DNA of 64,000 nt, from the NCBI GenBank assembly GCA_964349125.1, contig CAYGFH010000001.1, positions 5,408-69,407 on the forward strand. Reading direction: 5' to 3'. The position numbers were made by a program, and so were the translations under genes. Origin of the DNA: an uncultured Gammaproteobacteria bacterium (GTDB taxonomy: Bacteria; Patescibacteriota; Microgenomatia; UBA10105; UBA927). The notes under the pieces were generated by a model. The model was given only the letters and a program-made list of their open reading frames with translations, ran no database searches and was not told where the DNA came from. Positions 39,086 to 60,343 of the stretch are shown here, one piece after another (positions within the stretch are counted from its first letter, which is position 1; each line of letters opens with the position of its first letter).

Positions 39086-39109
39086 GATTTTTTCAACTAT
39101 TCCGATCTA

Positions 39110-43537: not shown

Positions 43538-45046
43538 TTATCCCAAACTCTTTCGCAGATGCGCCTGCGTTGTTAACTGGTCTTTACATGAGGCCATATC
43601 ATGGAGGTGACTCGCGATGTACTGCGATAGCTGCGCGTGTTCGAGCTGCTCCGGGGTCGTTGGACCTGCCTGTACGCCGAGGTATTCTTCTACACCCCGC
43701 ACGTCATCCAATACATCTTTCCAGGCCGCCGATTCGTTGGCAAGAAGCTCAAGAGCGTTCACGTTTACAAATCCCAATGCCGCTTTGAGATTGTCTTTGA
43801 TATTGAGATAGTACTGTTCAATATATGCAAGTGTTCCTTTTGTTTTGGCATCTTTCAATGCCCTGCCAGTTCCAATAATTTCGGGTGGTGCGCCCACACT
43901 GTAGAGTGATCCGGTAAATGTAATTGCCCGCGGTAGTCTCACCCCGCCGATTCCGCGAGAGTATCCGAACAGTCCGATATGCTGTACACGTTCCCGCCGT
44001 CTCGGTAAATGCGATGCCACTGTGTTTATAAGAGGAGCAATGCGCTCAATCGTCTGCTTATATGGAACTTCAATTACGTGGGCGATATCTGAGAGCATGG
44101 CAGCATCATCGGCTGATACGTGCTGAGCAACTCCGTACGGAAGCTCACTATCGAGTACTCTCAGTCCCGCAATGACGTCTTTGATGGGATAATCATAGCG
44201 AAATGCGCTCTGAATAAGTGCTGTCCGTATACCTGTATATTCTTTCGTAAATGCCATGGCATTCGTCGGCGTTAATCCCCCACGGAATGGCAACGCTGCT
44301 GTCCCGATTATCGGGTGAAGCGATATACCATGTCTTTTTTCAAATTGCTCATAACGGGAAAGTGCAATCTTTGTGGCAAGGACAGTGGGTATCAGACCGG
44401 AATTAAGCGCCGGATCACTGCGGGCTATGTAGGGACGTAGATACGTAGGCGTCGTGCCAAATGTTTTTTTATGCATCTCTATATATGTTTCCAATATTGA
44501 GTCGGAATTCAATATAGTATCGATATCCTCAAATAACGGAATAAGCTCTATGTGCTTGAGATTTTCCGGAATTTTATTAAACAGCGCATGTTTCAGGTTT
44601 GCCAATTCGCTGTACGCTTCCTGTATATCCATCATTTCCTGAGCGCTCGTGGTCATGGGGAGTATCACTTCAAACAGGGGCTGTTCATACAGTTCCAGCT
44701 GTTTGGCCAGACCCGATGCGCCAAAAATTCCCATAAATGCCCGTCCCAGGCGGAATTCCGTCTCCACTTTCGGATTAGGCAAACGGAATGTCAGAAATTT
44801 TTCTTTCCCGAGCGGGTGCGCCTTAAAATACTCAAAATGTTCACTGTATAATTTTTCTACAATAGATTCGTCGACGTATTTCCCCTCCCAGTCCCATTTA
44901 TATTCGGAAATACCCAGCTCATTAAACGCGATGAAACATTCTTTCACTTCATGCCGTGTGCTTATAAACTCGGTATCATGCCAAAAAGGAATAGAGGCGT
45001 GATCGGGGTGCTGTGACGCCATCGTGGTTGGTATAATGCGGTTCAT
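43538..45046 (-). CDS. ppcA: archaeal-type phosphoenolpyruvate carboxylase
   Basis: About 500 aa with N-terminal PTTMASQHPD motif and overall length typical of PpcA rather than the 900-aa bacterial Ppc. Confidence 0.55.
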   Translation of the reverse strand: MNRIIPTTMASQHPDHASIPFWHDTEFISTRHEVKECFIAFNELGISEYKWDWEGKYVDESIVEKLYSEHFEYFKAHPLGKEKFLTFRLPNPKVETEFRLGRAFMGIFGASGLAKQLELYEQPLFEVILPMTTSAQEMMDIQEAYSELANLKHALFNKIPENLKHIELIPLFEDIDTILNSDSILETYIEMHKKTFGTTPTYLRPYIARSDPALNSGLIPTVLATKIALSRYEQFEKRHGISLHPIIGTAALPFRGGLTPTNAMAFTKEYTGIRTALIQSAFRYDYPIKDVIAGLRVLDSELPYGVAQHVSADDAAMLSDIAHVIEVPYKQTIERIAPLINTVASHLPRRRERVQHIGLFGYSRGIGGVRLPRAITFTGSLYSVGAPPEIIGTGRALKDAKTKGTLAYIEQYYLNIKDNLKAALGFVNVNALELLANESAAWKDVLDDVRGVEEYLGVQAGPTTPEQLEHAQLSQYIASHLHDMASCKDQLTTQAHLRKSLG

Positions 45047-45185: not shown

Positions 45186-45256
45186 GCCTCCTTAGCTTAG
45201 TGGCAAAGCAGCGGTATCGTAAACCGTAGACGTCAGTCCGATTCTGACAGGAGGCT
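45186..45256 (+). tRNA. tRNA-Thr (anticodon CGT)
   Basis: Manual cloverleaf: acceptor gcctcct/aggaggc, D stem gctt/aagc, anticodon loop atCGTaa, T arm gtcag-tccgatt-ctgac. Confidence 0.8.
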
Positions 45257-45288
45257 CAGACTACACAGATATTTGGTATACTTCTAGT

Positions 45289-46005
45289 ATGATCACTACG
45301 CGAAGAGGGAGACTCGACGAACAAAAACAGCAAAAAAAACTGGTTCTCGCCATAGGTGGCATGATCGCCATCATCGTGTTTTTTGCCCTTTTTGGTGTAA
45401 AAATCCTCATCGGTTTCAGTGTGCTGGTTGATAATATAAGAGGCTCATCTCCTACACCGGTCGCACAATCAAACAAACAGGTACTGTTTCCTCCCTCACT
45501 TGATCCGCTTCCTGTAGCCACCCATAGCAGCATACTGCGCATCAGCGGATCAGGCACTGCCGGACTGACGGCAACTGTGTACGACAATAACAAAGAAGTG
45601 CGAAAAACTACCGTCGCGGGAAACGGCGTGTTTACCGCTCAGCTTCCGTCGCTCAAAGATGGTACACATGACCTGACGGTAAAACTGTCTGACACAAAAG
45701 GAAATATAAGCGAGCCGTCCAATCCTCTTACTATCATCATAAAGACAACGCTTCCGGAGCTCACAATAGATTCACCTGAAAATAACGCCACCATAAACAG
45801 TGAGAGCAATATGGTTTCCATATCAGGAACGACGGAGAGTGACACGACCGTATCGTTAAACGGCAGAATTGCGGTAATTAAACCGGATAATTCATTTACG
45901 TATTCATACCCGTTATCGGACGGGGAGAACATCATCCGCATTGTCGCGACAGACATGGCGGGAAATACCACCACAGAGGAATTGAAGCTTACCTATCAAA
46001 AGTAA
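45289..46005 (+). CDS. membrane-anchored protein with bacterial Ig-like repeats
   Basis: N-terminal TM helix, then beta-rich Thr/Ser-rich repeats (TATVYDNNKEVRKTTVAGNG..., TTVSLNGRIAVIKPDNSFTYSY). Confidence 0.5.
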   Translation: MITTRRGRLDEQKQQKKLVLAIGGMIAIIVFFALFGVKILIGFSVLVDNIRGSSPTPVAQSNKQVLFPPSLDPLPVATHSSILRISGSGTAGLTATVYDNNKEVRKTTVAGNGVFTAQLPSLKDGTHDLTVKLSDTKGNISEPSNPLTIIIKTTLPELTIDSPENNATINSESNMVSISGTTESDTTVSLNGRIAVIKPDNSFTYSYPLSDGENIIRIVATDMAGNTTTEELKLTYQK

Positions 46006-47161
46006 GCTCGACTGCCGATACGATCACCCACATCCATACCATTACCCATGGATAGAACAGACTGTTTACAAAAAATGAGTGCATAAACACTGCGCTTATG
46101 CTGACAATGTAGAGCTGTTTTACCGATACCTGTTCTTTTTTTGCAGGATCACCAAACCGTCCCGCACTGTAGAGTAAATAGACATACGCTACCAGCCCCA
46201 ATACACCGGAGGTCACCAGTAAAAATAATATGCTGCTGTCTACCCCCCCTGCCGCATGGGATGTGTAAACCACGCCGCCGGTATACACGGGAGTCTGGAT
46301 CAGGCGGAGTGTATTAAACCCGTGTCCGACAACCGGCGATTTCAGAAAGAGTTCTGATGATTCCTTCCAGTTTGAGAATCTCGAGTACGTAGAGTCCTCC
46401 CGCCATAATCTGAGCGTGTCTCCCCCCGGCCGCGGCACATATATAATGATCGCGGCAAGTGCGAACAATAATCCAAGAACCGCAAACTGCTTTTTCAACA
46501 TGCCGTATATGATCATGCCAAACCCAAGCGCCAGATAACTGCTTCTTGAGTATGTGAGATACACACAGACGACGAGCAGTACAACTGCCGCCAATATCCA
46601 CGGCTTCTTTTGCGTCACGTACAGGTGATACCCCAGAAAGGTGGACAAGACAAGAATAATACCTGCGAAATTCGGATCAAGCAGCGTAGAAAATAAACGG
46701 TAATAATGCGGGTCCCATCCCATGTACATAAGGAAACGCAGATTTGGGTAGAGGAAAAATTGCGCGATGCCGACTACACCAAAGACCAGGCCAAATGTAA
46801 ACAGATGTCCCAACAGCGTCGAAACAGGGATAGCCGATCTGACGAACAATACGTACAAACATGCGTACGCCGCCCATCGCCACAGGTAGAGGGAGGAGGT
46901 GAAAAGATCCGCTACCCCAAAGCTACCCACATTTGCCACGAGCGATATGACACCGGCAGACAGAAACAGCACCATCGGCCGCATGAGTGGTGGAGCTTTG
47001 GTACTTTTTTTACGTTGGCGCCACTGGCGTATGCCCAAAAAAATTATACCCGATACCAGTACGAAATCATGTGCATAGGCTACGACTCCCGGCTTTATCG
47101 ATATACCCGTGAGTGTTCCAAACAGAAGACTTCCCAACAGTAAAATATAGAACGTCAACAT
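45989..47161 (-). CDS. O-antigen ligase / Wzy_C family polymerase-ligase
   Basis: Polytopic membrane protein with LTYSRSSYLALGFG (Wzy_C signature region). Confidence 0.7.
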   Translation of the reverse strand: MLTFYILLLGSLLFGTLTGISIKPGVVAYAHDFVLVSGIIFLGIRQWRQRKKSTKAPPLMRPMVLFLSAGVISLVANVGSFGVADLFTSSLYLWRWAAYACLYVLFVRSAIPVSTLLGHLFTFGLVFGVVGIAQFFLYPNLRFLMYMGWDPHYYRLFSTLLDPNFAGIILVLSTFLGYHLYVTQKKPWILAAVVLLVVCVYLTYSRSSYLALGFGMIIYGMLKKQFAVLGLLFALAAIIIYVPRPGGDTLRLWREDSTYSRFSNWKESSELFLKSPVVGHGFNTLRLIQTPVYTGGVVYTSHAAGGVDSSILFLLVTSGVLGLVAYVYLLYSAGRFGDPAKKEQVSVKQLYIVSISAVFMHSFFVNSLFYPWVMVWMWVIVSAVELTFDR

Positions 47162-47163
47162 AT

Positions 47164-47922
47164 CTAGGGTAACGGCACCCGTTTTTTATGATACCGCATG
47201 TACAACTTCCCCCGGGTCAAAAATGAATGCAGGCTCATAAACACGGCGATACACAGTCCGGGCACACCGTCGAGAAATCCCAGATGCACGATATAATTCC
47301 GTATAAATTTGAGTGCCGGATACGCCACCACATGCCATCCGGGAGCAGCCACTTTTGATGCATACAGCATATCGGCATTTATAGTTGAGTACCAATTCAC
47401 ATCGGCAATAAACTGCCTGACAGTCGGATGGGGAAAATGCAATAGGGGAGACACAAGGGTTTCCGTCGTGCCATGGATATTCCATACTTCATGCACTGCC
47501 CGCTCCCATACACCACTCCCCTTTTTTGCCAGTCGCAAAAGTCTGACTCCCGACGTCTCTCCGTAGCGCAATTGCCTACCCCACAGTGTGTCTGTCCGTT
47601 TGAGAAAATATCCATTTACGGTCTTGTTCTCGGATGTCACCCGCTCTATTTCCTGTTTCAGAGAATCTGTAACAACTTCATCGCTGTCCAAAAACAGCAC
47701 CCACTCCCCTTTCGCTTTGGCAAGACCTGCATTCCGCTGAGCGGCAAAATTATCTCCCAGCGCTCTATGGAGTACTGTGGAAGTATATCTTTTTGCCCGG
47801 GCAACAGTTGCGTCAGAAGACTCATCATCGACTACTATAATTTCGCCACACCACGAAACACTTTCGATGGCGCGGGCGATTATATCCTGATCGTTATGGG
47901 CAAGAATAACAGCCGATATCAT
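47164..47922 (-). CDS. family 2 glycosyltransferase
   Basis: ISAVILAHNDQD...VVDDESSD...FLDSDE (GT-A, DXD). Confidence 0.75.
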   Translation of the reverse strand: MISAVILAHNDQDIIARAIESVSWCGEIIVVDDESSDATVARAKRYTSTVLHRALGDNFAAQRNAGLAKAKGEWVLFLDSDEVVTDSLKQEIERVTSENKTVNGYFLKRTDTLWGRQLRYGETSGVRLLRLAKKGSGVWERAVHEVWNIHGTTETLVSPLLHFPHPTVRQFIADVNWYSTINADMLYASKVAAPGWHVVAYPALKFIRNYIVHLGFLDGVPGLCIAVFMSLHSFLTRGKLYMRYHKKRVPLP

Positions 47923-47958
47923 GCGATTATTGTATCACGCTTGAGTTTTGACTCATAA

Positions 47959-49104
47959 GTGGAGTACACTCTCCCTGACATGATTCGGATACGAACGTTG
48001 TTTGCACTGCTCCTGTGCATTTACCTCATCGGGTTTGGGGCACATGCTGCAATGTTGGGGAAAACCGTCTATGGAGATGGTATTTTTTACTACAGCTGGG
48101 TCAGATCCACAGTCGTTGACAATGATATTGATTTTACGAACGATTATACAGAGTTTGGCGTCACGCAACCGATTACCCCAAGCGGTCTCCCGGGGAATAA
48201 ATACAGCATTGGTGCCTCAATACTGTGGTACCCCTGGTTTGCATGGACTCACACACTTGTTCGCGGATCAGGGTATGAACCTATCTACCAATATGTCACA
48301 GGGCTTTCCAGCGTGCTCTATGCTTTGGTAGGACTCATACTGCTCTACAGAACACTCAGGAGGCAATTTTCAGAACCGATTGCCATCATCACTATACTTG
48401 CCACAGCCCTCTGTACGCATTTACTATTTTACGGATCGATTGATGCGGTTAACTCCCACGCGGCTTCATTCTTTGCTACATCGCTCTTTGTTACGTTACT
48501 TATGCAAAGGGAAAGGCGATGGTTCCAAATCGGATGTGCCATTGGTTTGGTAGCACTCGTTCGCACACAGGATATCGTGGTAGGCCTCGCCATATTGCCA
48601 TTTATAAAACCGAAGCATATCGCGGCAGTTGTCGCGGGAGGCCTCTATGTGTTTATGCCGCAGCTTTTGGTGTGGCAGATACTGAATAATGCGTTTTGGA
48701 AGAGTCCGTATATCAGTTCCATCGAAGGATTTAATTTTCTGTCACCACATATAGCGGGTGTACTGTTTTCTACCGGCAACGGACTGTTTCTCTGGACTCC
48801 GGTATTACTATTGGGAATTGCGGGACTGTGGATGTATCGGCAGACAAAACCGAATATCTATTTTTTACTCGCTATAGCTATTCAGATTTTTGTGGTCTCT
48901 TCATGGAGTATCTGGTGGCAGGGTGCATCGTACAGCGGACGCATGTTTGTGGGAACCATCCCGCTGTTCGCATTTGGCATGGCGGGTATGTTTAAACTTC
49001 TGGCTATAAAACACATCGAGTATAAAGACCAGCTGTTGTCAGTTATTATTCCTCTGGCGTTCATCAACATGCTGCTTATTCTCTATTTTTTGATTTCCCA
49101 CTAA
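47959..49104 (+). CDS. polytopic membrane protein, putative glycosyltransferase-associated (family unassigned)
   Basis: 381 aa with about 9 TM helices; located in the glycosylation cluster. Confidence 0.4.
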   Translation: MEYTLPDMIRIRTLFALLLCIYLIGFGAHAAMLGKTVYGDGIFYYSWVRSTVVDNDIDFTNDYTEFGVTQPITPSGLPGNKYSIGASILWYPWFAWTHTLVRGSGYEPIYQYVTGLSSVLYALVGLILLYRTLRRQFSEPIAIITILATALCTHLLFYGSIDAVNSHAASFFATSLFVTLLMQRERRWFQIGCAIGLVALVRTQDIVVGLAILPFIKPKHIAAVVAGGLYVFMPQLLVWQILNNAFWKSPYISSIEGFNFLSPHIAGVLFSTGNGLFLWTPVLLLGIAGLWMYRQTKPNIYFLLAIAIQIFVVSSWSIWWQGASYSGRMFVGTIPLFAFGMAGMFKLLAIKHIEYKDQLLSVIIPLAFINMLLILYFLISH

Positions 49105-50723
49105 TCAAACACCAGAAATTGAGAACCAATCACGCGGATTATTAGATTCTCCCGATATCGCGGCCGTGTAAAATATCCACACTCATGCCAATTGGAGACG
49201 CTTATGACTGTGATATGGTTGCCGGTGTTTGTGGGGTAGGCAATATCATGAAATGCGCAGATCTCAGGCGCTTTATAACTGCCGAATGCAGTCATACTGG
49301 GAAATCCGTATTGGGAGGCATCATCCCTGCCAAAGTATGACAGACGAACGACCGATGGTTTTTCTTCTTTGATAAACGATGACAAAGTAATTAGTCCCTG
49401 CCCCCAATCAATATTGCTGTCCGTGAATCGCTGGTATCGCAAACTCCTGTTCCCTGCAAATTCATTTGCGAACGAGAGAAAATGAGGGAACTGCGAGAGT
49501 GTCCCAACAGCTAACCAGAGAACCAGACCGGAGAGCACTAGATTTGTAGTCATACTCCGCTTCTGTACGAGTAAACTTGAGGCAAGGATGGTAAGAAACG
49601 GATATATCGGCAACACATACCGCACAAAAGGTTGCATGGGAGATATCGCAGATGCAGCGAGTATTGCCACCACTGGCGCCGCAAGTACTATGAGTATAGT
49701 TCTGTGTTTACGTGACCGGTACAATGTGTACGCACCTGCCGCTGAAAGTACCAACAGAGGGATAGGCGTCTTGAGGATAACTGTCACCAGCATAAAGTAC
49801 CATTCCGGCCTCGGATACCACGTACCTAAGAAAAATGTTTTTGCAGGAATCGTTGACCTCACTGCAGTGTTTTTGATCACTGCAATATAGTCACCAAGAG
49901 GCAGTGGTACCTGTTCCAAAATGTTGAGCCCTGCAAGCAGTATTTTGTTATTATGAACTGACGCATAATTTCTGATTTTTTCGGACACACGGCCGGAGGT
50001 GCTGCTCGGGAGTATGACAACACTCATACGGAAAAAATACGTACTCCATATAACGAGTAGACATACCAGCACAGAAAAGCCTATACGGATTTTCTGTGTA
50101 TGCCACCACACGAATCCTTTTTTGTGCAGCATGTACGGCACAATCACCAGCGAACTTAGCGCGTAGTATGCAAGCAGAGTGATTTTGGCAGACGCCAAAA
50201 GTCCCATGCATACACCATGATAGGCAAATGTTTTCCAAGATGGTGATCGAATCATGTAGATGAGAGACATATACCCGAGAAAGAAAAAGAGCGCGGCACC
50301 TAGATCCTGTGTCACCAGATGATTGAGTCCGAGCATCGTGGGCTCAAACGCATAGATCGTTATGGCCAGGGTGGCCGCACTCATCCCAAAGAAATTTTTC
50401 GTCACAACGAAAATACTGCTTCCCAACACAACGGCCAATAGTACTATCACCAAACGGGCTGGAAGGGCATCCATATGTGGGGGTGAATTGCTTTGAGATG
50501 TATTCCCCATAATCAGAAGCGGGAGTACAGCAAGCTCTCGGATGAGAGGCGGATTATTGGTATCTATAAGAAATTCCCGCTTGAGCCACGCATTTTTGCC
50601 TTCCTCAATGTGCACTATTTCATCATAGGTGAGGGATTCGCGAAGGGCACTGGAAACGGAGAGCCATACAAATATACATCCTAGGATGCCTATCAGTACC
50701 GCGGGATTGATAAAACGTTTCAT
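49101..50723 (-). CDS. GT39/GT83-type (PMT / ArnT-like) membrane glycosyltransferase
   Basis: 540 aa, polytopic, with first-loop TYDEIVH (DE motif) typical of PMT/ArnT C-type glycosyltransferases. Confidence 0.6.
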   Translation of the reverse strand: MKRFINPAVLIGILGCIFVWLSVSSALRESLTYDEIVHIEEGKNAWLKREFLIDTNNPPLIRELAVLPLLIMGNTSQSNSPPHMDALPARLVIVLLAVVLGSSIFVVTKNFFGMSAATLAITIYAFEPTMLGLNHLVTQDLGAALFFFLGYMSLIYMIRSPSWKTFAYHGVCMGLLASAKITLLAYYALSSLVIVPYMLHKKGFVWWHTQKIRIGFSVLVCLLVIWSTYFFRMSVVILPSSTSGRVSEKIRNYASVHNNKILLAGLNILEQVPLPLGDYIAVIKNTAVRSTIPAKTFFLGTWYPRPEWYFMLVTVILKTPIPLLVLSAAGAYTLYRSRKHRTILIVLAAPVVAILAASAISPMQPFVRYVLPIYPFLTILASSLLVQKRSMTTNLVLSGLVLWLAVGTLSQFPHFLSFANEFAGNRSLRYQRFTDSNIDWGQGLITLSSFIKEEKPSVVRLSYFGRDDASQYGFPSMTAFGSYKAPEICAFHDIAYPTNTGNHITVISVSNWHECGYFTRPRYRENLIIRVIGSQFLVFD

Positions 50724-51868
50724 GATGAGAGAAGTTTTATATACAGATCAGATATTTTTCTGGCGCCTATTGCTATGTCATGCACACGCTCCGCTCTCCT
50801 TCTGGCAAGCATGCCAAATTCACGGCGGGCATCAGCATGAAGCATGTAATTCTTGAGAGAGTATGCAATCGATTGCGGATCTGAGGGTGCCACGAGAGTG
50901 GCTGCCGATGCGACGTTTTCGGGTATTCCTCCCGTTTTTGTGGTGATAATCGGCAAACCCGCAGCCTGTGCTTCAAGGAGGGCAGTACAGTACTGCTCCT
51001 CAAATGTAGCAGTAGGCACACTCGGCGCTATGAATATATCTGCCTTGGCATACACATCCGGCATACGGTCATATGGGACATGTGAATGGGAAATCAAACC
51101 GGATAATCCAACCAGTTGTTCCACTTCTTTCATATGATGAAGCTGTGATCCGTCTCCCACAAATTTCATCCACCATGTATACCCTTTCAATACCGGATCA
51201 TTAAGGAGAATCCGTAAGGCATCCAATATATCATATACACCTTTGTACGTTTCCAGCCGTCCTGTATATAGGAGTACAAAATCGCGTTTCTTGGGAAAGA
51301 ACCGGCGGGAAATGACCTCTTTCGTCGGCGCAAACATTTTTGTATCGATAAAATGACTGATCACAGTGATTTTGTCAGGATCTGCGCCTTCGGTAATAAG
51401 GGTGTCTTTTGTTTTTTGTGTAAGAGCGATCATATGATCCAACTCAGTTCTCGCCCGGGATTTAAACGCCTTCCGCCCCCATATCCCTTCATTGTTAAAC
51501 GGAATATTCTCAAGAACTGTCGCTATCACTTTTTTCACTTTCCCCTGTTTTTTCGCATTCAGACATTGTTGGGTATAGTGGAAATACGTCTCCGCAGTAT
51601 GCACCAGGTCAAACCCTTCGATGGCACGCTCCAATCCCAAAAGATAATGTGAATCGACGAATAACCGGTTGAGTATGGGCAACTTGCACGGGAAGTCCGG
51701 CAAATCGAGAGGACACCATAATTTCTTCACCGGAAATGCAAATGAATCATGGTACGAACTGTGTGACCCAAACCCCGTAAGTGCATACGACCCGACAAGC
51801 GGATTATAAAACTGCATTTCGTATGCGTTTAAAAATTTTCCTCTGACTATCGCGACTTTCGGTTTCAT
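50720..51868 (-). CDS. family 4 (GT-B) glycosyltransferase
   Basis: C-terminal EAQAAGLPIITTKTGGIPE (GT4 EX7E region). Confidence 0.75.
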   Translation of the reverse strand: MKPKVAIVRGKFLNAYEMQFYNPLVGSYALTGFGSHSSYHDSFAFPVKKLWCPLDLPDFPCKLPILNRLFVDSHYLLGLERAIEGFDLVHTAETYFHYTQQCLNAKKQGKVKKVIATVLENIPFNNEGIWGRKAFKSRARTELDHMIALTQKTKDTLITEGADPDKITVISHFIDTKMFAPTKEVISRRFFPKKRDFVLLYTGRLETYKGVYDILDALRILLNDPVLKGYTWWMKFVGDGSQLHHMKEVEQLVGLSGLISHSHVPYDRMPDVYAKADIFIAPSVPTATFEEQYCTALLEAQAAGLPIITTKTGGIPENVASAATLVAPSDPQSIAYSLKNYMLHADARREFGMLARRRAERVHDIAIGARKISDLYIKLLSS

Positions 51869-53469
51869 ATGGATGGAAAAATCGTGGGACTGTCGGTTTT
51901 CCAAACGCGAATAGTCCCGCGAACCAAAAACACACTATACCCGTATGCTGACATATCTGTTGCCGATGGGGCAATTATATAAGTTGGCCGCATATAGGTG
52001 AATACAGAAAAGTCGTACGCATCCCCGGCCGTATTTTTATATGTCGGCACACCGACAGGAGACCAGCCATAATAATAATTCAACACCGGTATAGATGCTT
52101 TCAACAAATAGGGTTGCATGCAGCAAGACAAATTCACTACATAAAATTTGCCGCTGTCAGCTGCACGAAGATCAGTGGCCACTGATTCTTCTATTGACCT
52201 GTTTGGGGCAAATGCGGTTTTCATGGTCAAAAACGACATCCCATATGTCCACACACAGCTAGCGGCACAAATGCCGATAAGTATCCGCGTACGCCAGGCG
52301 GGAAACCGGCGTATCATATACTCCAAACACAAAGCAATCAAAAGCATAAGCGGCACAAGAAGAGGCACAACAATCCGTTGCGGAACACGGAACGTCCGTG
52401 CAAATGACACCGACTGAAATATCCAGTGAAACGGTGAATAGGGATACGCAAGTGCAAGGTACAGAGCGCCTAATGCGATGGATATCAGACAATAGATCAC
52501 AACTCGGTTTTTTAACACCGGGCGCCAGAAGTACAGCGGGATCAGAGCCATGGGTGTGATAAATGCATAATACTCATACCAGTTATACTGGAATCCCACT
52601 ATGCGTTGCAGCGTGGGACGGTCATAGAACATCACCTGCCATGGGATGATGTAGGATAGCGGTAAAAATATGGCATGCAGTGATCCTTCAAACGGGTTAA
52701 TGTAAGAGAGCCTATTAAAGTGAGGTAACACATCACGGACAAACGGTATCAGTTTTGGCATGGCAAATACCAGAAACATTCCATATATAGAGACTGCCTC
52801 TTTACCCAGTTCCCCCATTCCCCGTTTTTTTGTAAAAAGATCATACAGACGAAACGCGAGCCAGAACAGACTGAAGAACCAGACCCCGTAAAAATCCACG
52901 GAAAAAAACAGTGTGGCAAAGATAAGTCCCAATAGTGCACTGTTTGCGAATGAACTGCCCGGCCCAAGCAGTATCATAAAAACAATCGGGGCAAGTACAT
53001 AGGTCGGCAATTTTTCTATATGTCCCGATGCAACCATTGCCGCTATTGCTCCCGATGTCCCATACAGGACACCTCCCCACTGGGATATGTGTGTGGACAG
53101 GGAAAAAAATCGAAGAAGCATCCACATGCTTACACCGGAACAGATGACGGACAATGAGATGATCACCCGAAGCCCGTTCTCGGGGCCAAAAAGCAAGAAC
53201 CACGGCATAAACCAGGGGCTGAATACGAGCGATGAAGGATCGCCCAGTACGGGCATACCCAATCCTACATACGGATTCCATACTAAAAATTGCGCCGGGT
53301 CACGTAGAGCCCGTATCGCAAATTCCGCCATGGGTATTGCTACGTTATAATCAGTATCCAGTCTGAAGTATAGTGAATACGTGCTGATCCAAATAAGGAG
53401 TACCAGCGATCCGAGAACAGTCAAAACTGAGAACAGATCAGAGAGTGGTTGAAAGCGATTCAATTTCAT
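51865..53469 (-). CDS. YfhO-like polytopic membrane protein (putative lipid-linked glycan transferase)
   Basis: 534 aa with more than 10 TM helices; WNPYVGLGMP motif resembles YfhO family. Confidence 0.45.
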   Translation of the reverse strand: MKLNRFQPLSDLFSVLTVLGSLVLLIWISTYSLYFRLDTDYNVAIPMAEFAIRALRDPAQFLVWNPYVGLGMPVLGDPSSLVFSPWFMPWFLLFGPENGLRVIISLSVICSGVSMWMLLRFFSLSTHISQWGGVLYGTSGAIAAMVASGHIEKLPTYVLAPIVFMILLGPGSSFANSALLGLIFATLFFSVDFYGVWFFSLFWLAFRLYDLFTKKRGMGELGKEAVSIYGMFLVFAMPKLIPFVRDVLPHFNRLSYINPFEGSLHAIFLPLSYIIPWQVMFYDRPTLQRIVGFQYNWYEYYAFITPMALIPLYFWRPVLKNRVVIYCLISIALGALYLALAYPYSPFHWIFQSVSFARTFRVPQRIVVPLLVPLMLLIALCLEYMIRRFPAWRTRILIGICAASCVWTYGMSFLTMKTAFAPNRSIEESVATDLRAADSGKFYVVNLSCCMQPYLLKASIPVLNYYYGWSPVGVPTYKNTAGDAYDFSVFTYMRPTYIIAPSATDMSAYGYSVFLVRGTIRVWKTDSPTIFPSI

Positions 53470-54562
53470 GAAGCAATAATTGCGCAGTACGGTTCCATTG
53501 GTATTCGTTTGCCTGCCTGATACCTTTTACGGACATGTCCGCACGCTTCTTTGCATTATACGCTAACACACGCATTCCCTGCGCGATCTGTTCATGATCA
53601 GCAGGATCCACAAATATCCCTGTGTTTCCCAACACCTCGCGCATGACCTTTGTGTCAGAAGTGATTACAGGGCACCCGCATGCGATTGCCTCTGCTGCCG
53701 GCATACAGAAGCCTTCATGAAACGACGGGACGATGAGTCCTGCGGCGCCACGGTAATATGATGCCAATTCACCATCAGCGACAAATCCCAATTTTTTCAC
53801 TCTGTCTTTTATACGGAGGATTTTTATGGTTTCTTCAATTTCAGGATCTTCCCAGTAATTGCCCCCTATTAACACAAGTGAAAATCTGGTGTGGGATTCT
53901 GCCAAAAAATTTGCAAATCCGCTGAGTATTCCCGGTACATTTTTACCGGGTTTTAATGCGCCGACAAACAAAAAATATCTGGATGAACTTTTTTGTGTAA
54001 ATCCTTTTTTACTGAAACGGTCATCTATCCCAGGATACCCCACGGTAATTTGTTTGGCAGGAATATCATATTTGGAGACTATGTCAGACTTTACCGCTTT
54101 TGATATGGTAAAGATTTTTTTTGAAGTACGGCAAAGTTCACCTGTTTGCTTTTTTAATTTTTCATATGATCCGGGGTACGATGCGGGGCGCGTGATAAAC
54201 CCAAGATCATATACAAATCCAATGGAAGCTCCGCTGTGTTTCGGAACCATCTGCGACATACCCAAAAACACATCGACAGGATGCAGGGATAGCTCAAGTG
54301 GCAGACGGATTGTTGACCAGCCTTTAACCGGCCACAAGACTCTGTTTTCGAAGTTTTTCCCGAGCCGTCGAAGGACTGAATCGTCAATGGGATCAAAACT
54401 ATACAGGCGATAGAGACTTGTGCTGTCTATTTTTGCCAGCTCCTCCAGCGTATGGAGCACATAGCGGTACACACCGACTTTCAGACGATCGTCTGAAACA
54501 GACAATACTGCAGCATCAACGCCGATTATCATACCCCTTATTATAATACTTCTGTAAACCAC
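53438..54562 (-). CDS. family 4 glycosyltransferase
   Basis: SFHEGFCMPAAEAIACGCPVITSD (GT4 EX7E region). Confidence 0.75.
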   Translation of the reverse strand: MVYRSIIIRGMIIGVDAAVLSVSDDRLKVGVYRYVLHTLEELAKIDSTSLYRLYSFDPIDDSVLRRLGKNFENRVLWPVKGWSTIRLPLELSLHPVDVFLGMSQMVPKHSGASIGFVYDLGFITRPASYPGSYEKLKKQTGELCRTSKKIFTISKAVKSDIVSKYDIPAKQITVGYPGIDDRFSKKGFTQKSSSRYFLFVGALKPGKNVPGILSGFANFLAESHTRFSLVLIGGNYWEDPEIEETIKILRIKDRVKKLGFVADGELASYYRGAAGLIVPSFHEGFCMPAAEAIACGCPVITSDTKVMREVLGNTGIFVDPADHEQIAQGMRVLAYNAKKRADMSVKGIRQANEYQWNRTAQLLLHEIESLSTTL

Positions 54563-55412
54563 TGATGATTCCTGATATCGGGGTAGCCAGTGATCTCATG
54601 CTCACTTCCCTGCCAAATCCAAATATGCACCTGATTGCCCACTGCCATTTGGTGAGTAGAAATAAAGGAAGAAGCAATGGTGAAAAATGCTTGAGAAAGA
54701 AATATGTTTCATTACTAAAAAAATGGAAATACCACTGTATTCTTCCTTCGGTTTTTCTGGCTCCTCCATTGGGATCCCGCATGTGTTGAATTTCGGCAGT
54801 TGGATCAAACACAATTTTGTAGCCATTCTTTTTCGCGCGAAGTGACAAGTCAGAATCAAGTCGTAGTGCATTACCGGTAAACTTTTCATCCATACCATTC
54901 AATTCCATATACACACTACGCCTCCAGCACATGTTGCAGCCGATGACCGTATCTACTTCCTGTCGGATAGTAGAGGAAAATCCGTCACTCACGGTGCCAA
55001 ACCAATTAATTCTTCCCGTTCTGGTAAAGTCCGGCTGCAGTGTTTGTCCCTCAGTCACACATCGACCGACTGTGGCAGCTATTCCTGGATCAGAAAAGTT
55101 GTCAGCATGATGTTGCACAAATCCGGTGCTGCCCAATACATCATCATCAAGTATGAGGACAAGATCAGTTTTCGCCTGCTGCACACCGACATTTGTAGAA
55201 TGAGCCATGGATGCTTGTTCCAAATAGATATAGGTAAGTCGCAGTCCTAATTTCTTTGCGACTGATCGAATCTCTGCTTCATTGTTGTCACACTGCTCCA
55301 CCACAACTACATCCCCTGCAAATTTTACCGTCTTGGCAAGATTCTTCAAAAGAGCCATTAAACTCTTTTTCCTATGATACGTGGGAATAACTATCGAAAT
55401 GCTATATTGCAT
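54516..55412 (-). CDS. family 2 glycosyltransferase
   Basis: ISIVIPTYHR...ILDDDV (GT-A, DXD). Confidence 0.75.
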   Translation of the reverse strand: MQYSISIVIPTYHRKKSLMALLKNLAKTVKFAGDVVVVEQCDNNEAEIRSVAKKLGLRLTYIYLEQASMAHSTNVGVQQAKTDLVLILDDDVLGSTGFVQHHADNFSDPGIAATVGRCVTEGQTLQPDFTRTGRINWFGTVSDGFSSTIRQEVDTVIGCNMCWRRSVYMELNGMDEKFTGNALRLDSDLSLRAKKNGYKIVFDPTAEIQHMRDPNGGARKTEGRIQWYFHFFSNETYFFLKHFSPLLLPLFLLTKWQWAIRCIFGFGREVSMRSLATPISGIISGLQKYYNKGYDNRR

Positions 55413-55416
55413 AAAA

Positions 55417-56685
55417 TCATAACAAATAGACCTTTTGTGCTTTAAACCTCGAAAACAATATATACATATATACGCTTGAAGTAATTAATTCGGTGAGGAT
55501 AGTAACATAACTTGCGCCTATGTATCCATATAAAGGGATAATAAATGCGTTTAACAATATTGTAAGCACTAGTGAAGATAATAATGGAATAATAAGATAA
55601 TTTGTCTTACCGAACGAAAGTATTATGTTGAAGAAAATATTGTTAATAAATAAAAATGGAACTGCATATAATAATATTTTAAAAGGTTCTATACTCGAAT
55701 AAAATTTGCTTCCACCGAGTATTCGCATTATTAATGGTGCGCTAGTGTTGCCTATCAGTATCATAAAACAAGATAATCCGATTGCTATTAATAAGGCATT
55801 TTTAACCAATCGTCGATACGAATTGTGGTCGGCATTACCGTGATATTTAGACAGAAGCGGAAAAATACTAGCCATAATAAGCCCCCATAGCATAATTATG
55901 TTATCTAATACTTTATAAGCTAGTGCGTAAATACCTACTTCCACTGGTGAACGGATCATAGATAACATCAAAGTATCAATCTTAAAATACAACATCGTTA
56001 ATATGGCAGTTAATCCTACAGGAAGACTTATCTTTAATATGTTGCTGGCTATTTTCTTATCGAAATGCAAGCTTAATACAATCCAATCTTGTACGAAGAA
56101 ATACTCAACGATCATCCCAGCTACATTACCTATCAAAACTGCATAAATTATTGAGTAGAAACCTAGATCATAGCGTATGAAGAAATATATGCAAACAACT
56201 GTTACGCTTTTTGTAAACAAATCCAGAAGTGATACAAGATCTAATCTGAGTCTTGATTGTAATATTGACGTTCCATATGAAGATAAATTGCTAATTGTTA
56301 ATGCGGCTATTCCGATAATTATTGCTATTTTCAGATCAGATTCGTATGGAGTGAATCCTAAGCCGATGAAAGCAGCAATAATAGAGATCACAATAAGTAG
56401 TATCTTTATATTAAAAAATGTAGCGTACGCATCGCGCGAGCGTTTTATATCCAATGACAACTCGCGAACTATAGTTTGGTTATAACCAACATCGGCTAGC
56501 GTCGTGAAAAATGAAACATATGTAAAAACTAGAGTAAACCAACCATATTTTTCAGCTCCTAAATATCGAGCCAGCAATGCTACGCTTATAATAGAAAGGC
56601 CAACGGCAAACACTTTTGATAAGATTTGCGTTATCGTATTTATTAATATTCGGCCGCTTACGGATGTTTTTGACATGTTTTCCAC
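55417..56685 (-). CDS. wzx: Wzx-type polysaccharide flippase (MOP/PST family)
   Basis: 422 aa with 12-14 TM helices and PST-family N-terminus; very AT-rich. Confidence 0.75.
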   Translation of the reverse strand: MENMSKTSVSGRILINTITQILSKVFAVGLSIISVALLARYLGAEKYGWFTLVFTYVSFFTTLADVGYNQTIVRELSLDIKRSRDAYATFFNIKILLIVISIIAAFIGLGFTPYESDLKIAIIIGIAALTISNLSSYGTSILQSRLRLDLVSLLDLFTKSVTVVCIYFFIRYDLGFYSIIYAVLIGNVAGMIVEYFFVQDWIVLSLHFDKKIASNILKISLPVGLTAILTMLYFKIDTLMLSMIRSPVEVGIYALAYKVLDNIIMLWGLIMASIFPLLSKYHGNADHNSYRRLVKNALLIAIGLSCFMILIGNTSAPLIMRILGGSKFYSSIEPFKILLYAVPFLFINNIFFNIILSFGKTNYLIIPLLSSLVLTILLNAFIIPLYGYIGASYVTILTELITSSVYMYILFSRFKAQKVYLL

Positions 56686-56735
56686 AGAATATCATGCGCG
56701 TATATATTTCACAATCAAAATGATATATTTCTATC

Positions 56736-57860
56736 ATGAAAATATTGGTCGTCAGAAACTCATATATTATAGCGGGCGCAGAGATATATTATTTGAAACT
56801 TCAACATTCCCTTCGGAAATTGAATATTGACTGTCAAATAATACTCCTAACTAATAACAATGACCTCGCTAAGATTGCTACATCTCACAATATCGAGTCC
56901 TATGTGTTGAACACGTTCAGCGAAGAAGTCGGCACAAAAAAAGGACTTTTACGACTTTTTTTTAATTTGCCGGATTACATATATAAATACATCTCTATTA
57001 TTCATAAATTGAAGAGATTGCACAAAATTGACTTAGTTCTATTGTCAGGTAAGACTGAAAAATATATCTTGACCCTATTAAAAGCTGTTATAGATTTACC
57101 GATATTTTGGATTGAGCATGGACAAGTATTTACACCAACCATGTCGAAAATCGCGCTTTTTCTATATAAATTTTCTAGCAATTATTGTACTTATATTCTT
57201 TCAGAATCTAATGACACAATGAACGATTTAATCGATAATGGAATTAATCCAAAGATAATAAAATATATAGGCTCAGGTATTGATCATGATTATTTCGTAA
57301 AGACTAAACATAATTTCTCAAAAAGATTAATTGTTGGTTTCATGGCAACGATATGTTGGGAAAAGGGCGTGGAAGAGCTTACTGATACTCTCAAACGAGT
57401 GATTCAGGTTGATAGCACAATTAAATTTCTCATATTAGGTGACGGACCACAATTGAGTTTTCTAAAAGAGTTTATTATTAAGAATAGATTATCCAGCCGT
57501 GTAATTGCATATGGAAGAACGGAAAATGTTAAAGCACAACTTAATCGAATGGATATCTTATTATCACCCATACATCACCCTGGAGGGTTATCGCTTTCAG
57601 TACAGGAAGCTATGGCAATGGGCTGTATCCCAATTGTTACCGATGTAGGCGGAAATCGTGAATTGGTTAATAGTAGTCATGGGTACATACATAAATCTGA
57701 TTTTTCGATTAACGCGTGCCTCAATATTATTGAATTGAAGGAGAACATTAACCTTCGAAAAAGACTCTCTCAAAATGCGAGAAAGTATGTTATTAAAAAC
57801 TATTCTGCAATACAATTTACAAAAAAATTATACAGTTTTCTTCGGAAACATATAGACTGA
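56736..57860 (+). CDS. family 4 glycosyltransferase
   Basis: EAMAMGCIPIVTDVGGNRELV (GT4). Confidence 0.75.
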   Translation: MKILVVRNSYIIAGAEIYYLKLQHSLRKLNIDCQIILLTNNNDLAKIATSHNIESYVLNTFSEEVGTKKGLLRLFFNLPDYIYKYISIIHKLKRLHKIDLVLLSGKTEKYILTLLKAVIDLPIFWIEHGQVFTPTMSKIALFLYKFSSNYCTYILSESNDTMNDLIDNGINPKIIKYIGSGIDHDYFVKTKHNFSKRLIVGFMATICWEKGVEELTDTLKRVIQVDSTIKFLILGDGPQLSFLKEFIIKNRLSSRVIAYGRTENVKAQLNRMDILLSPIHHPGGLSLSVQEAMAMGCIPIVTDVGGNRELVNSSHGYIHKSDFSINACLNIIELKENINLRKRLSQNARKYVIKNYSAIQFTKKLYSFLRKHID

Positions 57861-57912
57861 TACACATAACGATATCTTGACAAGTTTTTTCTCCTAAACA
57901 ATACTAAGCGCG

Positions 57913-60267
57913 ATGTTTATGAGAAACTTAGTTTCTTTATATAAATTTCTGCTTGTATTTCTTTTTATTCTTTCTCTTCCTGAATCGAAAATATTGGCGC
58001 AAAATACCTTTGCTAAATATCCTACTAATCCGGTTTTCACTAAATCAACTAGCTCTTGGGATACATCCGCAGCGCACTCACCAACAGTCGTATACGTTAA
58101 TGGATTGTATAAAATGTGGTACGAAGGTAACGGTGGAAGTGGATGGAGAATTGGATATGCATACTCCCATGATGGGATTACAAATTGGGTGCGACATCCA
58201 CAACCTGTCCTTCAGGTTGGATCATCTGATGGGTATGAATTAGATACCTTAAATCCTTATGTCTTATATAATTCCGATTTAAATCTATACCAAATGTGGT
58301 ACTCATCATATTCGATAAACTGGCCATCTGGTCCTGATCGATTCAGATTAAGATATGCAACATCAACCGATGGTATCAACTGGAATAGACATGACAGTTT
58401 TGTTTTAGCAGGATCACCGAATCCTAATGATTGGGATAGTGGCGGAATCGCGAGAGGCATTTCAGTAATTTACTCTAACAATCTCTATAGAATGTGGTAC
58501 ACCGGGACCGATTGGGGAACGAATTGGAAAATAGGATATGCTACATCACCTGATGGTATTAACTGGACGAAACAAAATAATGGTAGTCCTGTACTCACTC
58601 CTACATACCCTTATGAGCTAATTAAAGCTAACTTTCCCAATGTTGAATTTGATAATGGAATTTATAAAATGATATACGGTGCATCTCCCGGTGACCTTCC
58701 CACTCGATTTGTTTACGCAACTTCTGTTGACGGTATTTCGTGGACGAAATTGCCAAATGAAAACCCTATTTTATCTATCGGCAATATAGGGTCATTCGAT
58801 TCTATAGTAATTTCAGGCTCCAGCCTAGCACATATCAATAATAGTACTTCGTATTTATGGTATGGGGGCAACGCGGAATCGATTGGTTTAGCAATCAGGA
58901 CAGATATTTCTATCCCCACCCCAACTGCAACTCGATCCGCTACACCTACACACTCACCTTCCCCAACAATGACATCTACACCAACTCCAACACCTCCTAG
59001 TACTAAAAAAATCGTTATTATTCCTGGCATGGGAGGAAGTTGGAACCGCAACGCACTCCTTAATTGCTCGACGACATCAGTTGATTCAGAATGGTCGCAC
59101 GCAATAGACTATTATTCAAACTTACATGACAGGCTTGACGCGGATGGACTTGAAACTTTTTTCTTCGCATACGATTGGCGAAAACCAATACAGGAGAATG
59201 GATTAAAGTTGAAACAGTTTATTGATGCCCATACGGCGACCGGTGAAAAAGTTTTTGTAGTTGGCCATAGCATGGGTGGACTTGTCGCCCGATCATATTT
59301 GGTGCATGAGGAAAATCAAAATAAGATAGAGAAACTTCTCACTGTTGGCTCCCCACATAGTGGGGTGAATGTTGCGTATCCTGCTCTGGCAGGAGGAGAA
59401 CTCTGGACAGATGATCTGCTATCAAAGATTGCTTTCACACTTGTTCAATATACCTGTGTGGTCAATAAACGAATTATCAAGGTACAATCAGTCAGAACAA
59501 TGATTCCTTCGTTTTATGACTTGTTGCCCATATATGATTACTTAATTGATATACGAAATGGAGATCCAATACCGTATGCTACACAATTTTTCAAAAATAT
59601 ATGGATTCCACAGGCGCAATTTGAATTCCCTTTCTTTGGTGTTCATGTAGGTGCGTTATCCGGAATGGGCTCACAAACACATAAATCATATCTTACGATT
59701 CCGCCTTCCGGTATTAATCGCATACTAAATATTTGGACAGACGGATATCCTGTGAAAATTAATAAGGATATCTCTGGAGATGGAAAAGTATTGTTAACCA
59801 GCGCCTACCTTCCTGGTGCAGAGAACTGGTCAATAGAAGCTGATCACGGCGAGTTGGTTACAGAATCAATGGGCATTCAGAATATATCCGAATTTTTCAC
59901 ACAACAGCGATTTTCCGCACTGGGGCAAGTAGCGAAATCTTCACAGGATAAAAAGGAACCGCAACTCACACAGAAAACTGCCCTTGCTGTTATGAGTGAT
60001 TCAGGTTCATTCACGGTCAAAACTCCAAGCCACAACAGCTTGTCAGATGTAGATGGTTTCGTGTTGCTGGAAAACCCTGCTGATGGTAAATATGAGATAC
60101 AGGTAGTTCCTGTGAACGAAAAAACCACTATCTACGTAGGACAGATTGTCGAAGGGGGTAAAACAATATGGAAAGATTATGAGCTAAAGAAAAAGAATCG
60201 GATCACCTTGCCAGTCCATTTTGATCATGCACATCCACACGATGATCCATTTAAAGACAGAGACTAG
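57913..60267 (+). CDS. secreted multidomain protein: signal peptide, GH32/43/130-like beta-propeller repeats, Pro/Thr linker, LCAT/PGAP1-like alpha/beta-hydrolase (GHSMGG, YDWR) and C-terminal beta domain
   Basis: Five blade-like repeats ending in MWYxG...IGYATSxDGIxW; PT-rich stretch PTPTATRSATPTHSPSPTMTSTPTPTPPS; lipase pentapeptide VVGHSMGGLV and FFFAYDWRKP. Confidence 0.7.
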   Translation: MFMRNLVSLYKFLLVFLFILSLPESKILAQNTFAKYPTNPVFTKSTSSWDTSAAHSPTVVYVNGLYKMWYEGNGGSGWRIGYAYSHDGITNWVRHPQPVLQVGSSDGYELDTLNPYVLYNSDLNLYQMWYSSYSINWPSGPDRFRLRYATSTDGINWNRHDSFVLAGSPNPNDWDSGGIARGISVIYSNNLYRMWYTGTDWGTNWKIGYATSPDGINWTKQNNGSPVLTPTYPYELIKANFPNVEFDNGIYKMIYGASPGDLPTRFVYATSVDGISWTKLPNENPILSIGNIGSFDSIVISGSSLAHINNSTSYLWYGGNAESIGLAIRTDISIPTPTATRSATPTHSPSPTMTSTPTPTPPSTKKIVIIPGMGGSWNRNALLNCSTTSVDSEWSHAIDYYSNLHDRLDADGLETFFFAYDWRKPIQENGLKLKQFIDAHTATGEKVFVVGHSMGGLVARSYLVHEENQNKIEKLLTVGSPHSGVNVAYPALAGGELWTDDLLSKIAFTLVQYTCVVNKRIIKVQSVRTMIPSFYDLLPIYDYLIDIRNGDPIPYATQFFKNIWIPQAQFEFPFFGVHVGALSGMGSQTHKSYLTIPPSGINRILNIWTDGYPVKINKDISGDGKVLLTSAYLPGAENWSIEADHGELVTESMGIQNISEFFTQQRFSALGQVAKSSQDKKEPQLTQKTALAVMSDSGSFTVKTPSHNSLSDVDGFVLLENPADGKYEIQVVPVNEKTTIYVGQIVEGGKTIWKDYELKKKNRITLPVHFDHAHPHDDPFKDRD

Positions 60268-60270
60268 TTG

Positions 60271-60343
60271 TGGGCGGTATAGGACTTGAACCTATGACCT
60301 TTTCAATGTCAATGAAACGCTCTACCAGCTGAGCTAACCGCCC
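60271..60343 (-). tRNA. tRNA-Val (anticodon GAC)
   Basis: Reverse complement gives acceptor gggcggt/accgccc, anticodon loop ttGACat, T-loop ttcaagt; 73 nt. Confidence 0.85.

Follow-up and report, generated by a model that had tools for sequence, protein, structure and literature searches.

A candidate surface-glycopolymer locus, fixed in position and variable in content, in a Gottesmanbacteria-type member of the Patescibacteria

We analyzed a 64,000-nucleotide stretch of contig CAYGFH010000001.1 (hereafter ‘the window’), within which an earlier reading of the sequence (the ‘original prediction’) had annotated an envelope glycosylation cluster. That annotation was right. With moderate confidence, we interpret the locus at positions 45186-60343 as a conserved chromosomal surface-glycopolymer locus of an uncultured Gottesmanbacteria-type bacterium (Microgenomates, Patescibacteria) – by analogy, one that can be likened to loci for secondary cell-wall polysaccharides or lipoglycans in monoderm bacteria. 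The conservation and variability of the locus, the protein families and folds that it encodes, and their acidic catalytic motifs could be established directly. The original prediction had gone further, proposing that a GT39- or YfhO-type enzyme moves a Wzx-flipped glycan to a proline/threonine-rich (PT) linker of an exported protein. This central inference gained no support, and it was weakened in places by comparison of orthologous loci and by classification of the enzymes.

Organization and conservation of the locus

Gene calls were checked as open reading frames (ORFs) and families were assigned with Pfam and NCBIfam. Every originally predicted ORF was present in the window, and Pfam matches backed the labels Wzy_C, Wzx and glycosyltransferase (GT) families GT2 and GT4 (Table 1). 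Twelve genes lie between tRNA-Thr and tRNA-Val: an immunoglobulin (Ig)-like protein, a Wzy_C protein, two GT2s, three GT-C enzymes, three GT4s, a Wzx flippase, and a protein that combines a propeller, a PT linker and a lipase-like domain. Packing is tight, with overlapping stops and starts between neighboring genes.

Table 1. Features of the locus and its boundaries, in window positions.
Feature	Position	Strand	Evidence
tRNA-Thr(CGT), conserved locus boundary	45186-45257	+	ARAGORN
Membrane-anchored Ig-like protein, two Ig-like domains	45289-46005	+	Glucodextran_B E 4.1e-16; Big_13 E 5.5e-14
Wzy_C-domain membrane protein (O-antigen polymerase/ligase/O-oligosaccharyltransferase superfamily), core	45989-47161	-	PF04932 E 2.6e-14
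GT2, 252 aa, core, next to Wzy_C	47164-47922	-	PF00535 E 1.8e-19
GT-C, 381 aa, PMT_2 type	47959-49104	+	PF13231 33.6 bits, above gathering score 26.1
GT-C, 540 aa, predicted GT-C_A fold	49101-50723	-	PMT_2 24.2 bits, below threshold; AlphaFold2 and Foldseek
GT4, 394 aa	50720-51904	-	Glycos_transf_1 E 1.7e-23
Short divergent YfhO-like GT-C, 534 aa	51865-53469	-	hhalign and fold
GT4, 374 aa, core	53438-54562	-	Glycos_transf_1 E 1.4e-28
GT2, 298 aa, HpsN/EpsD-like, variable part	54516-55412	-	Glyco_tranf_2_3 E 2.1e-14; NCBIfam HpsN E 4.9e-37, below cutoff
Wzx/MOP-family flippase	55417-56685	-	Polysacc_synt E 3.5e-26; GC 0.330
GT4, 374 aa, variable cassette	56736-57860	+	Glycos_transf_1 E 2.4e-23; GC 0.329
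Exported 784-aa protein	57913-60267	+	LCAT E 1e-12; PGAP1 E 4.4e-11; Glyco_hydro_130 E 8.5e-11
PT linker PTPTATRSATPTHSPSPTMTSTPTPTPPS	58915-59001	+	P, T or S at 24/29 residues
tRNA-Val(GAC), conserved locus boundary, followed by signal peptidase I and ParB	60270-60343	-	ARAGORN

We compared about 15 orthologous Gottesmanbacteria/Microgenomates loci (designated by L-numbers) using BLASTP, hidden Markov model search and a tRNA scan. In all of these related genomes, the locus is bounded by tRNA-Val, signal peptidase I and ParB on one side and by tRNA-Thr on the other. The scan located tRNA-Thr beside the Ig-like gene in L006, L007 and L084-L089, and tRNA-Val in L006, L085, L086 and L087. Signal peptidase and ParB orthologues in the related loci are 60-91% identical. 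Among named genomes the closest are those of Candidatus Gottesmanbacteria and the ‘Patescibacteria group’, to whose ParB the window's protein is 77-91% identical. The tRNA flanks had hinted at a mobile genomic island, an interpretation that we rejected: because all relatives share these flanks and this position, this is a fixed chromosomal locus in which only the Wzx/GT4 cassette looks exchanged.

Every locus whose sequence extends far enough contains a core of four genes, encoding the anchored Ig-like protein, the Wzy_C protein, the 252-aa GT2 (41-59% identity across related loci) and the 374-aa GT4 at 53438-54562. Wzy_C and this GT4 each have orthologues in 16 loci, among them the GT-C-free L092. 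The 394-aa GT4, with orthologues of 52-72% identity in nearly all loci, and the 381-aa GT-C are usual but not constant. The variable parts comprise the number of GT-C genes – from none in L092 up to five in L086 and L089 – together with methyltransferases, an epimerase, sugar-modifying genes and Wzx. The 298-aa GT2 belongs to this variable part, and its PDB matches are only generic GT2 enzymes.

The Wzx gene and the adjacent GT4 (55417-57860) have a GC content of ~0.33, versus a window mean of 0.455, and many orthologous loci lack them or have other genes in their place; the GT4 itself is present in few. The low GC content suggests cassette exchange, and the pair appears to be an exchanged cassette inside an otherwise fixed locus. 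Taken by analogy, the combination of a constant core, a variable middle and a low-GC Wzx/GT4 pair matches the pattern of O-antigen-like variable glycan loci.

We infer that a glycopolymer, rather than protein, is the main acceptor, and we propose the following donors and order of steps. Cytoplasmic GT4 and GT2 enzymes would assemble a lipid-linked oligosaccharide, which would be flipped – here by the Wzx of the low-GC exchangeable cassette – and then polymerized or ligated outside the membrane by the Wzy_C protein. The three GT-Cs (the 540-aa and 381-aa PMT_2 types and the 534-aa YfhO-like enzyme) would attach more sugars on the outer face, using polyprenyl-phosphate-sugars as donors. We model the GT-C step on multi-component transmembrane glycosylation systems. 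In polysaccharide and teichoic-acid pathways, the PMT_2-type GT-Cs GacL, GtsC and CsdD/CsdF decorate cell-wall polymers, and a Wzx-type flippase, GacK, can serve such GT-C systems (PMC8035078); teichoic acids are the substrates of YfhO enzymes (PMC5836110). The interleaving of several different GT-Cs with GT4s is more in keeping with a glycan that is extended or decorated step by step than with a single protein mannosyltransferase. Differing GT-Cs, methyltransferases and flippases among relatives would yield strain-specific glycans. The anchored Ig-like protein would be a constant partner of Wzy_C, and it could bind the acceptor or take part in control of the polymer. The propeller/lipase protein would be a separate exported enzyme in which the PT stretch serves as a normal flexible link between domains; its propeller may trim the glycan.

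Several observations weigh against a glycopolymer pathway of this kind. Neither an initiating phosphoglycosyl transferase (Bac_transf, Glycos_transf_4) nor a Wzz chain-length regulator was found in the window or the orthologous loci, and no LCP-type ligase, GtrA flippase or GtrB/CsbB/Dpm1-like polyprenyl-phosphate-sugar synthase was recognized in any locus. With initiator, regulator, ligase, synthase and GtrA flippase genes missing, the pathway cannot be closed from the window; the initiating transferase and the chain-length regulator may be encoded elsewhere in the genome. Wzx is absent from L085, L086, L087, L090, L091 and L092, the flanks of which are covered. A DSNxDWGQ motif in the family of the 540-aa enzyme is invariant across phyla with unrelated envelopes, including DPANN archaea, which would be unexpected for an enzyme tied to a lineage-specific polysaccharide. 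Furthermore, the likeness of this enzyme to ArnT and to protein O-mannosyltransferases (PMTs) does not foretell its acceptor.

A third GT2 (235 aa; 32705-33412) lies 12 kb from the locus and is weakly similar to DPMS, ArnC and ceramide glucosyltransferase, with a sub-threshold match to TIGR04283 (137.8 bits). The best DPMS match among the three GT2s of the window, which covers only this part of the genome, is 21.5 bits and belongs to this protein. It is the sole candidate in the window for a lipid-phosphate-sugar synthase, and a weak one.

Three predicted GT-C enzymes

The original prediction labeled the 540-aa protein a GT39-type enzyme with a first-loop DE motif. The motif held up: across 66 homologues there is no variation in the D34-E35 pair, which sits in the first outer loop just after the first transmembrane helix. 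GT-C_A enzymes in general carry an acidic residue in this loop. The GT39 label did not hold up. The sole Pfam match is to PMT_2 (PF13231), which falls short of the gathering score of 26.1 bits, and the Pfam search gave no match to PF02366 at E <= 0.01 and none to PF16192 (PMT_4TMC). Some members of the family carry precomputed PF02366 matches; that model includes ArnT as well. No ArnT model in NCBIfam matched the 540-aa protein, and single-sequence PDB searches with the 540-, 534- and 381-aa proteins gave no relevant match.

Structure prediction placed the 540-aa protein near Pmt4 and ArnT about equally. In a Foldseek search, its AlphaFold2 model (pLDDT 93.5) matched Chaetomium thermophilum Pmt4 best (E 3.7e-7; TM-scores 0.53/0.57), followed by ArnT (E 2.7e-6; 0.50/0.51), by STT3, AglB and ALG9 (E 2e-5 to 6e-5), and by PglB. 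Sequence identities were 13-15% for Pmt4 and ArnT and 11-17% over all listed matches. When the family profile was compared with the PDB, the only real sequence match was ArnT (5ezm; E 0.042, 15.7 bits), in an alignment that spans the regions of the ‘TLD’ aspartate and the ‘YIVP’ tyrosine. We conclude that, as judged from sequence and predicted fold, the protein is a generic PMT_2-type GT-C that resembles Pmt4 and ArnT about equally and is not demonstrably GT39. The human TMTC protein O-mannosyltransferases most resemble ArnT (PMC7801869), and likeness to ArnT or PMT does not reveal the acceptor.

In the model, the C-terminus of the protein (residues ~420-540) forms a soluble alpha/beta outer domain. 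This domain has no Pfam model and contains the invariant DSNxDWGQ motif together with the invariant residues Y463 and Y472. The motif pair of the family retrieves relatives in >577 species, with representatives in Acidobacteriota, Verrucomicrobiota, Planctomycetota, Elusimicrobiota, Chloroflexota, Patescibacteria and Woesearchaeota. Outside Patescibacteria, no conserved neighbor emerged in 72 loci from Acidobacteriota and other phyla; the commonest was an ABC ATPase (11/72 loci), and a GT2 of ~312 aa lies downstream in eight. Gene context is thus uninformative about the donor or acceptor of the family.

Two other assignments were rejected. The original prediction had named, as the finding that would count against it, a GT83 enzyme with undecaprenyl-phosphate-sugar genes adjacent. 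We found no such arrangement: Ara4N and lipid A genes are not present, and arnA-F are absent from the window and from every orthologous locus, and we therefore rejected an ArnT role in lipid A modification. We rejected an STT3-type N-oligosaccharyltransferase because a regular-expression scan found no WWDYG motif in any protein of the island.

The 381-aa protein had been described simply as a polytopic membrane protein. It is one, with ~10 hydrophobic segments, but a more specific identity can be given: it matches PMT_2 above threshold, and there are therefore three GT-Cs in the island rather than two. Orthologues are found in 10 further loci (L006, L007, L010, L011, L084, L086, L087, L088, L090 and L091).

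The 534-aa protein had been called YfhO-like, and our results support that call. Neither Pfam (including PF09586 at E <= 0.01), NCBIfam nor the PDB yielded a sequence match, and a search of the PDB with the family profile was also empty. The 76 homologues are all from Patescibacteria where named, and none has a Pfam domain. PF09586 YfhO genes sit in the orthologous clusters of L085 and L089, and hhalign aligned the 534-aa protein with the L085 YfhO protein over 336 columns (probability 97.1%, E 4.8e-11). An invariant aspartate (D40) lies in the sequence RLDTDYD after the first transmembrane helix, and the AlphaFold2 model (pLDDT 92.8) has Foldseek GT-C matches to AftD, AftA, ArnT and STT3. Sequence profile and modeled fold thus support a divergent relative of YfhO. 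We rejected the idea that the 540 and 534 families are paralogues, as their profiles are unrelated (hhalign probability 14%).

Orthologous clusters also contain ORFs of 468-622 aa without a Pfam match: L086 11743-13611, L088 12801-14303, L089 2159-3679 and L090 7741-9147. Three of these were scanned directly, and that in L090 was judged from precomputed annotation. They may represent additional unrecognized GT-C families.

Each GT-C gene lies directly downstream of, and overlaps, a GT4 gene. The stop of the 394-aa GT4 overlaps the start of the 540-aa GT-C gene, for instance, and in L084-L088, too, this GT4 gene runs into the GT-C gene that follows it. This pairing bears on a variant in which the product would be a membrane-anchored lipoglycan or glycolipid made like lipomannan/lipoarabinomannan or glycosylphosphatidylinositol, with GT4s glycosylating a membrane lipid inside, a flipping step, and extension by GT-Cs outside. 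Along with the gene pairs, the variant draws on the lack of a phosphoglycosyl transferase in every locus, on weak similarity of the GT4s to GlcNAc-phosphatidylglycerol synthase (39-43 bits) and monoglucosyl-diacylglycerol synthase (27.6-27.8 bits), and on the top Foldseek matches of the 534-aa model, the mycobacterial arabinofuranosyltransferases AftD and AftA. We nevertheless consider it unlikely: the GT4 matches to lipid-acting enzymes are of a generic kind and fall far short of the cutoffs, the presence of Wzx and Wzy_C suggests an undecaprenyl-diphosphate repeat-unit route, and no polyprenyl-phosphate-sugar synthase was found in the locus.

Candidate protein acceptors

The original prediction rested on two exported flanking proteins with Thr/Ser/Pro-rich segments. 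One of these, the 784-aa protein, does carry such a segment; the other, the Ig-like protein, does not. In the 784-aa protein, a signal peptide is followed by a GH130/GH43-like beta-propeller (NCBIfam beta-1,2-mannobiose phosphorylase, E 3e-14, below its cutoff), the PT linker, an LCAT/PGAP1-type lipase-like alpha/beta hydrolase and a C-terminal region without a family match. By a composition criterion, its linker is the sole PT-rich segment among the 169 window ORFs of >=80 aa. The protein has 1316 homologues, mostly from Microgenomates, and a PT-rich segment occupies the same interdomain position in 83 of the best 120. The length and sequence of the stretch vary while its position is retained, which fits a flexible linker selected for composition. 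In some genomes (L084, L086) two or three ORFs share the propeller/linker/lipase architecture between them. For organisms that must scavenge lipids, an exported lipase-like enzyme may be of importance.

Orthologous loci allowed us to examine whether the clusters always carry a PT-linker protein, a check put forward with the original prediction. The association fails in both directions. The linker protein lies beside the cluster in nine loci (the window, L004, L007, L084, L085, L086, L090, L091 and L092). In L006 and L087 the 540-aa enzyme is present and the linker protein is absent, with the flank covered. Conversely, L090, L091 and L092 have the linker protein, with its linker, and no member of the 540 or 534 family; L092 lacks PMT_2 and YfhO genes altogether, as well as all three GT-C types of the window. 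Since the 540-aa enzyme and the linker protein vary independently within a conserved neighborhood, their adjacency is explained by inherited gene order. A caveat is that these genomes may encode a GT-C elsewhere.

We consider it very unlikely that the 540-aa GT-C or the YfhO-like enzyme O-glycosylates serines and threonines of exported proteins, those in the PT linker of the 784-aa protein among them. What speaks for this model is the Pmt4 match at the top of the Foldseek list, the invariant loop-1 Asp-Glu pair, the reality of a linker that is rare in the window and conserved in its family, its position beside the cluster in nine loci, and the spread of the 540 family over phyla that share only protein as an acceptor class. 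Set against this are the near-equal scores of ArnT and STT3, the sequence-level PDB match to ArnT alone, the PF02366, PF16192 and PMT_2 results given above, the lack of a recognized polyprenyl-phosphate-mannose synthase among the window GT2s, and the loci in which enzyme and linker part company. Characterized YfhO enzymes, moreover, act on teichoic acids, and PMT_2-type GT-Cs of cell-wall pathways act on those polymers. PMT and YfhO enzymes use polyprenyl-monophosphate monosaccharides and are not known to take a Wzx-flipped oligosaccharide.

En-bloc transfer to serine or threonine is instead the task of Wzy_C-family enzymes such as PglL and PilO, and if protein is O-glycosylated at all by this locus, the Wzy_C protein is the likelier transferase. 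The GT4 and GT2 enzymes would build an undecaprenyl-diphosphate-oligosaccharide that is flipped and then transferred by Wzy_C to serines or threonines in low-complexity segments of surface proteins, with the Ig-like protein and PT linkers as possible targets. The genetic arrangement is suggestive: Wzy_C, the Ig-like protein and the 252-aa GT2 occur in every locus that reaches them, including the GT-C-free L092, and the Ig-like protein adjoins Wzy_C wherever sequence extends there, its gene always converging on the Wzy_C gene and overlapping the 3' end of that gene. Pilin-specific transferases such as TfpO/PilO likewise adjoin their substrate gene. In addition, to our knowledge Patescibacteria lack lipopolysaccharide, the usual WaaL acceptor. 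The top PDB match of the 252-aa GT2 is GmaR (E 2.1e-16), the Listeria flagellin O-GlcNAc transferase, with SunS-type peptide glycosyltransferases lower in the list; a PDB sequence search found no convincing similarity of this GT2 to GtrB, ArnC or DPMS.

Other points count against the en-bloc route, and we regard it as unlikely too. GmaR is cytoplasmic, and the similarity is limited to the generic GT2 fold. The Pfam scan of the Wzy_C protein returned PF04932 and neither PglL_A nor Wzy_C_2, and a single-sequence search returned no PDB relative. The Wzy_C domain also covers ordinary polymerases and by itself separates neither polymerase, ligase nor O-oligosaccharyltransferase. The Ig-like protein consists of a basic N-terminal tail, one transmembrane helix, a short linker, and Big_13 and Glucodextran_B-type domains; the segment after the helix fails the PT-rich criterion, and no PT repeat is conserved in 12 orthologues. 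Given the failed composition test and the unconserved linker, we rejected this protein as a PT-rich substrate.

A broader version would make the locus a general protein O-glycosylation system of Patescibacteria, in which a glycan made by GT4 and GT2 enzymes reaches Ser/Thr-rich segments, including PT linkers and the Ig-like protein, via either Wzy_C or a DSNxDWGQ-type GT-C. We hold this to be doubtful.

Relation to known systems and biological significance

The closest known counterparts are multi-component transmembrane glycosylation systems and Wzx/Wzy secondary cell-wall polysaccharide loci – GacI/J/K/L of S. pyogenes, GtsABC of B. anthracis with the secondary cell-wall polysaccharide that Wzx/Wzy makes there, CsdAB/CD/EF of L. 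lactis and CsbB/GtcA/YfhO of B. subtilis. Like these, the locus holds PMT_2- and YfhO-type GT-Cs with an acidic first-loop motif, a Wzx-type flippase, Wzy_C, and cytoplasmic GT4 and GT2 enzymes. Unlike them, it lacks a membrane-linked GT-A polyprenyl-phosphate-sugar synthase, a GtrA flippase, an initiating transferase and an LCP ligase; its GT-C genes pair with GT4 (GT-B fold) rather than GT2; it has three GT-Cs, with up to five in relatives; and it includes the anchored Ig-like protein beside Wzy_C. The 534-aa protein is ~200 residues shorter than the YfhO proteins recognized by Pfam and is missed by that model, and the window encodes neither the CsbB-type GT2 nor the GtcA/GtrA flippase that accompany YfhO of the B. 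subtilis type.

Resemblance to other systems is more partial. With the GT39 PMTs (yeast Pmt1/2/4; actinobacterial Pmt, for example M. tuberculosis Rv1002c), the 540-aa enzyme shares a predicted GT-C_A fold, the first-outer-loop Asp-Glu and a nearby PT-rich candidate acceptor. It is, however, only 13% identical to Pmt4, with ArnT, STT3 and ALG9 scoring nearly alike; it has neither a PF02366 nor a four-transmembrane PMT_4TMC domain, and its C-terminal domain, with the DSNxDWGQ motif, is a different one; its gene belongs to a cluster of several GTs instead of being solitary, with no Ppm1-type synthase recognized; and across loci its presence does not track that of the PT-linker protein. The family profile has a single sequence-level match in the PDB, ArnT (GT83), at an E-value of only 0.04, with a fold TM-score of 0.50 and the ‘TLD’ and ‘YIVP’ regions aligned; the locus has no arnABCDEF, and, as far as we know, the group of the source organism lacks lipid A. 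With PglL/PilO/TfpO and Gram-positive S-layer glycosylation (WsaB), the locus shares a Wzy_C protein accompanied by GT4, GT2, a flippase and an adjacent gene for a candidate surface-protein substrate. Its Wzy_C protein lacks PglL-specific domains and could equally be a polymerase, and the Ig-like protein and PT linker are only candidate substrates.

The remainder of the window is housekeeping in character: pyrimidine synthesis, ATP synthase, DnaE, GatAB, MurT/GatD, ClpB and an archaeal-type phosphoenolpyruvate carboxylase. The carboxylase gene (PF14010, E 3.7e-132; 43538-45046) directly adjoins the glycan locus and occupies the same place in L007 and L084. The regions 745-11900 and 26865-29044 hold a de novo pyrimidine set (carAB, aspartate carbamoyltransferase, amidohydrolase, pyrD, pyrF and phosphoribosyltransferases) and the MurT/GatD peptidoglycan-amidation pair, which together amount to more biosynthesis than is often assumed for a ~0.8 Mb genome of this group. 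A low-GC stretch at 38000-42000 (GC 0.37-0.42) contains two minus-strand ORFs without a family match, at 39110-39829 and 39961-41781. The second (606 aa) has a weakly Avs1c-like N-terminus (E 4.8e-7, below its cutoff), and the stretch may be a small defense islet. Beside the orthologous locus in L084, amid tRNA-Gly, tRNA-Asp and tRNA-Thr, ARAGORN called a tRNA with anticodon TTA (‘tRNA-Stop’; 17984-18058), which is perhaps a suppressor tRNA, or else a miscall.

Overall, the locus is fairly ordinary, being built of known families and apparently working like known Wzx/Wzy and GT-C cell-wall polysaccharide systems. Two families met along the way may be of use: a short YfhO-like family, invisible to Pfam and seen only in Patescibacteria, and a widespread PMT_2 subfamily with an unannotated DSNxDWGQ outer domain. 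Our search of the literature on Patescibacteria or the Candidate Phyla Radiation together with O-glycosylation, PMT or glycosyltransferase found nothing relevant. Should protein glycosylation prove true, PT-linker O-glycosylation would extend well beyond Actinobacteria, the locus would provide the first glycoprotein pathway to be described in the Candidate Phyla Radiation, and a function would be at hand for a GT-C subfamily of >577 species of bacteria and DPANN archaea. Patescibacteria live attached to other cells, and the surface is thus central to their biology. Conserved and sharply delimited, yet variable inside, the locus described here is a candidate for the main surface glycan of these bacteria. 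Serotype-like typing of metagenome genomes and heterologous expression are possible uses.

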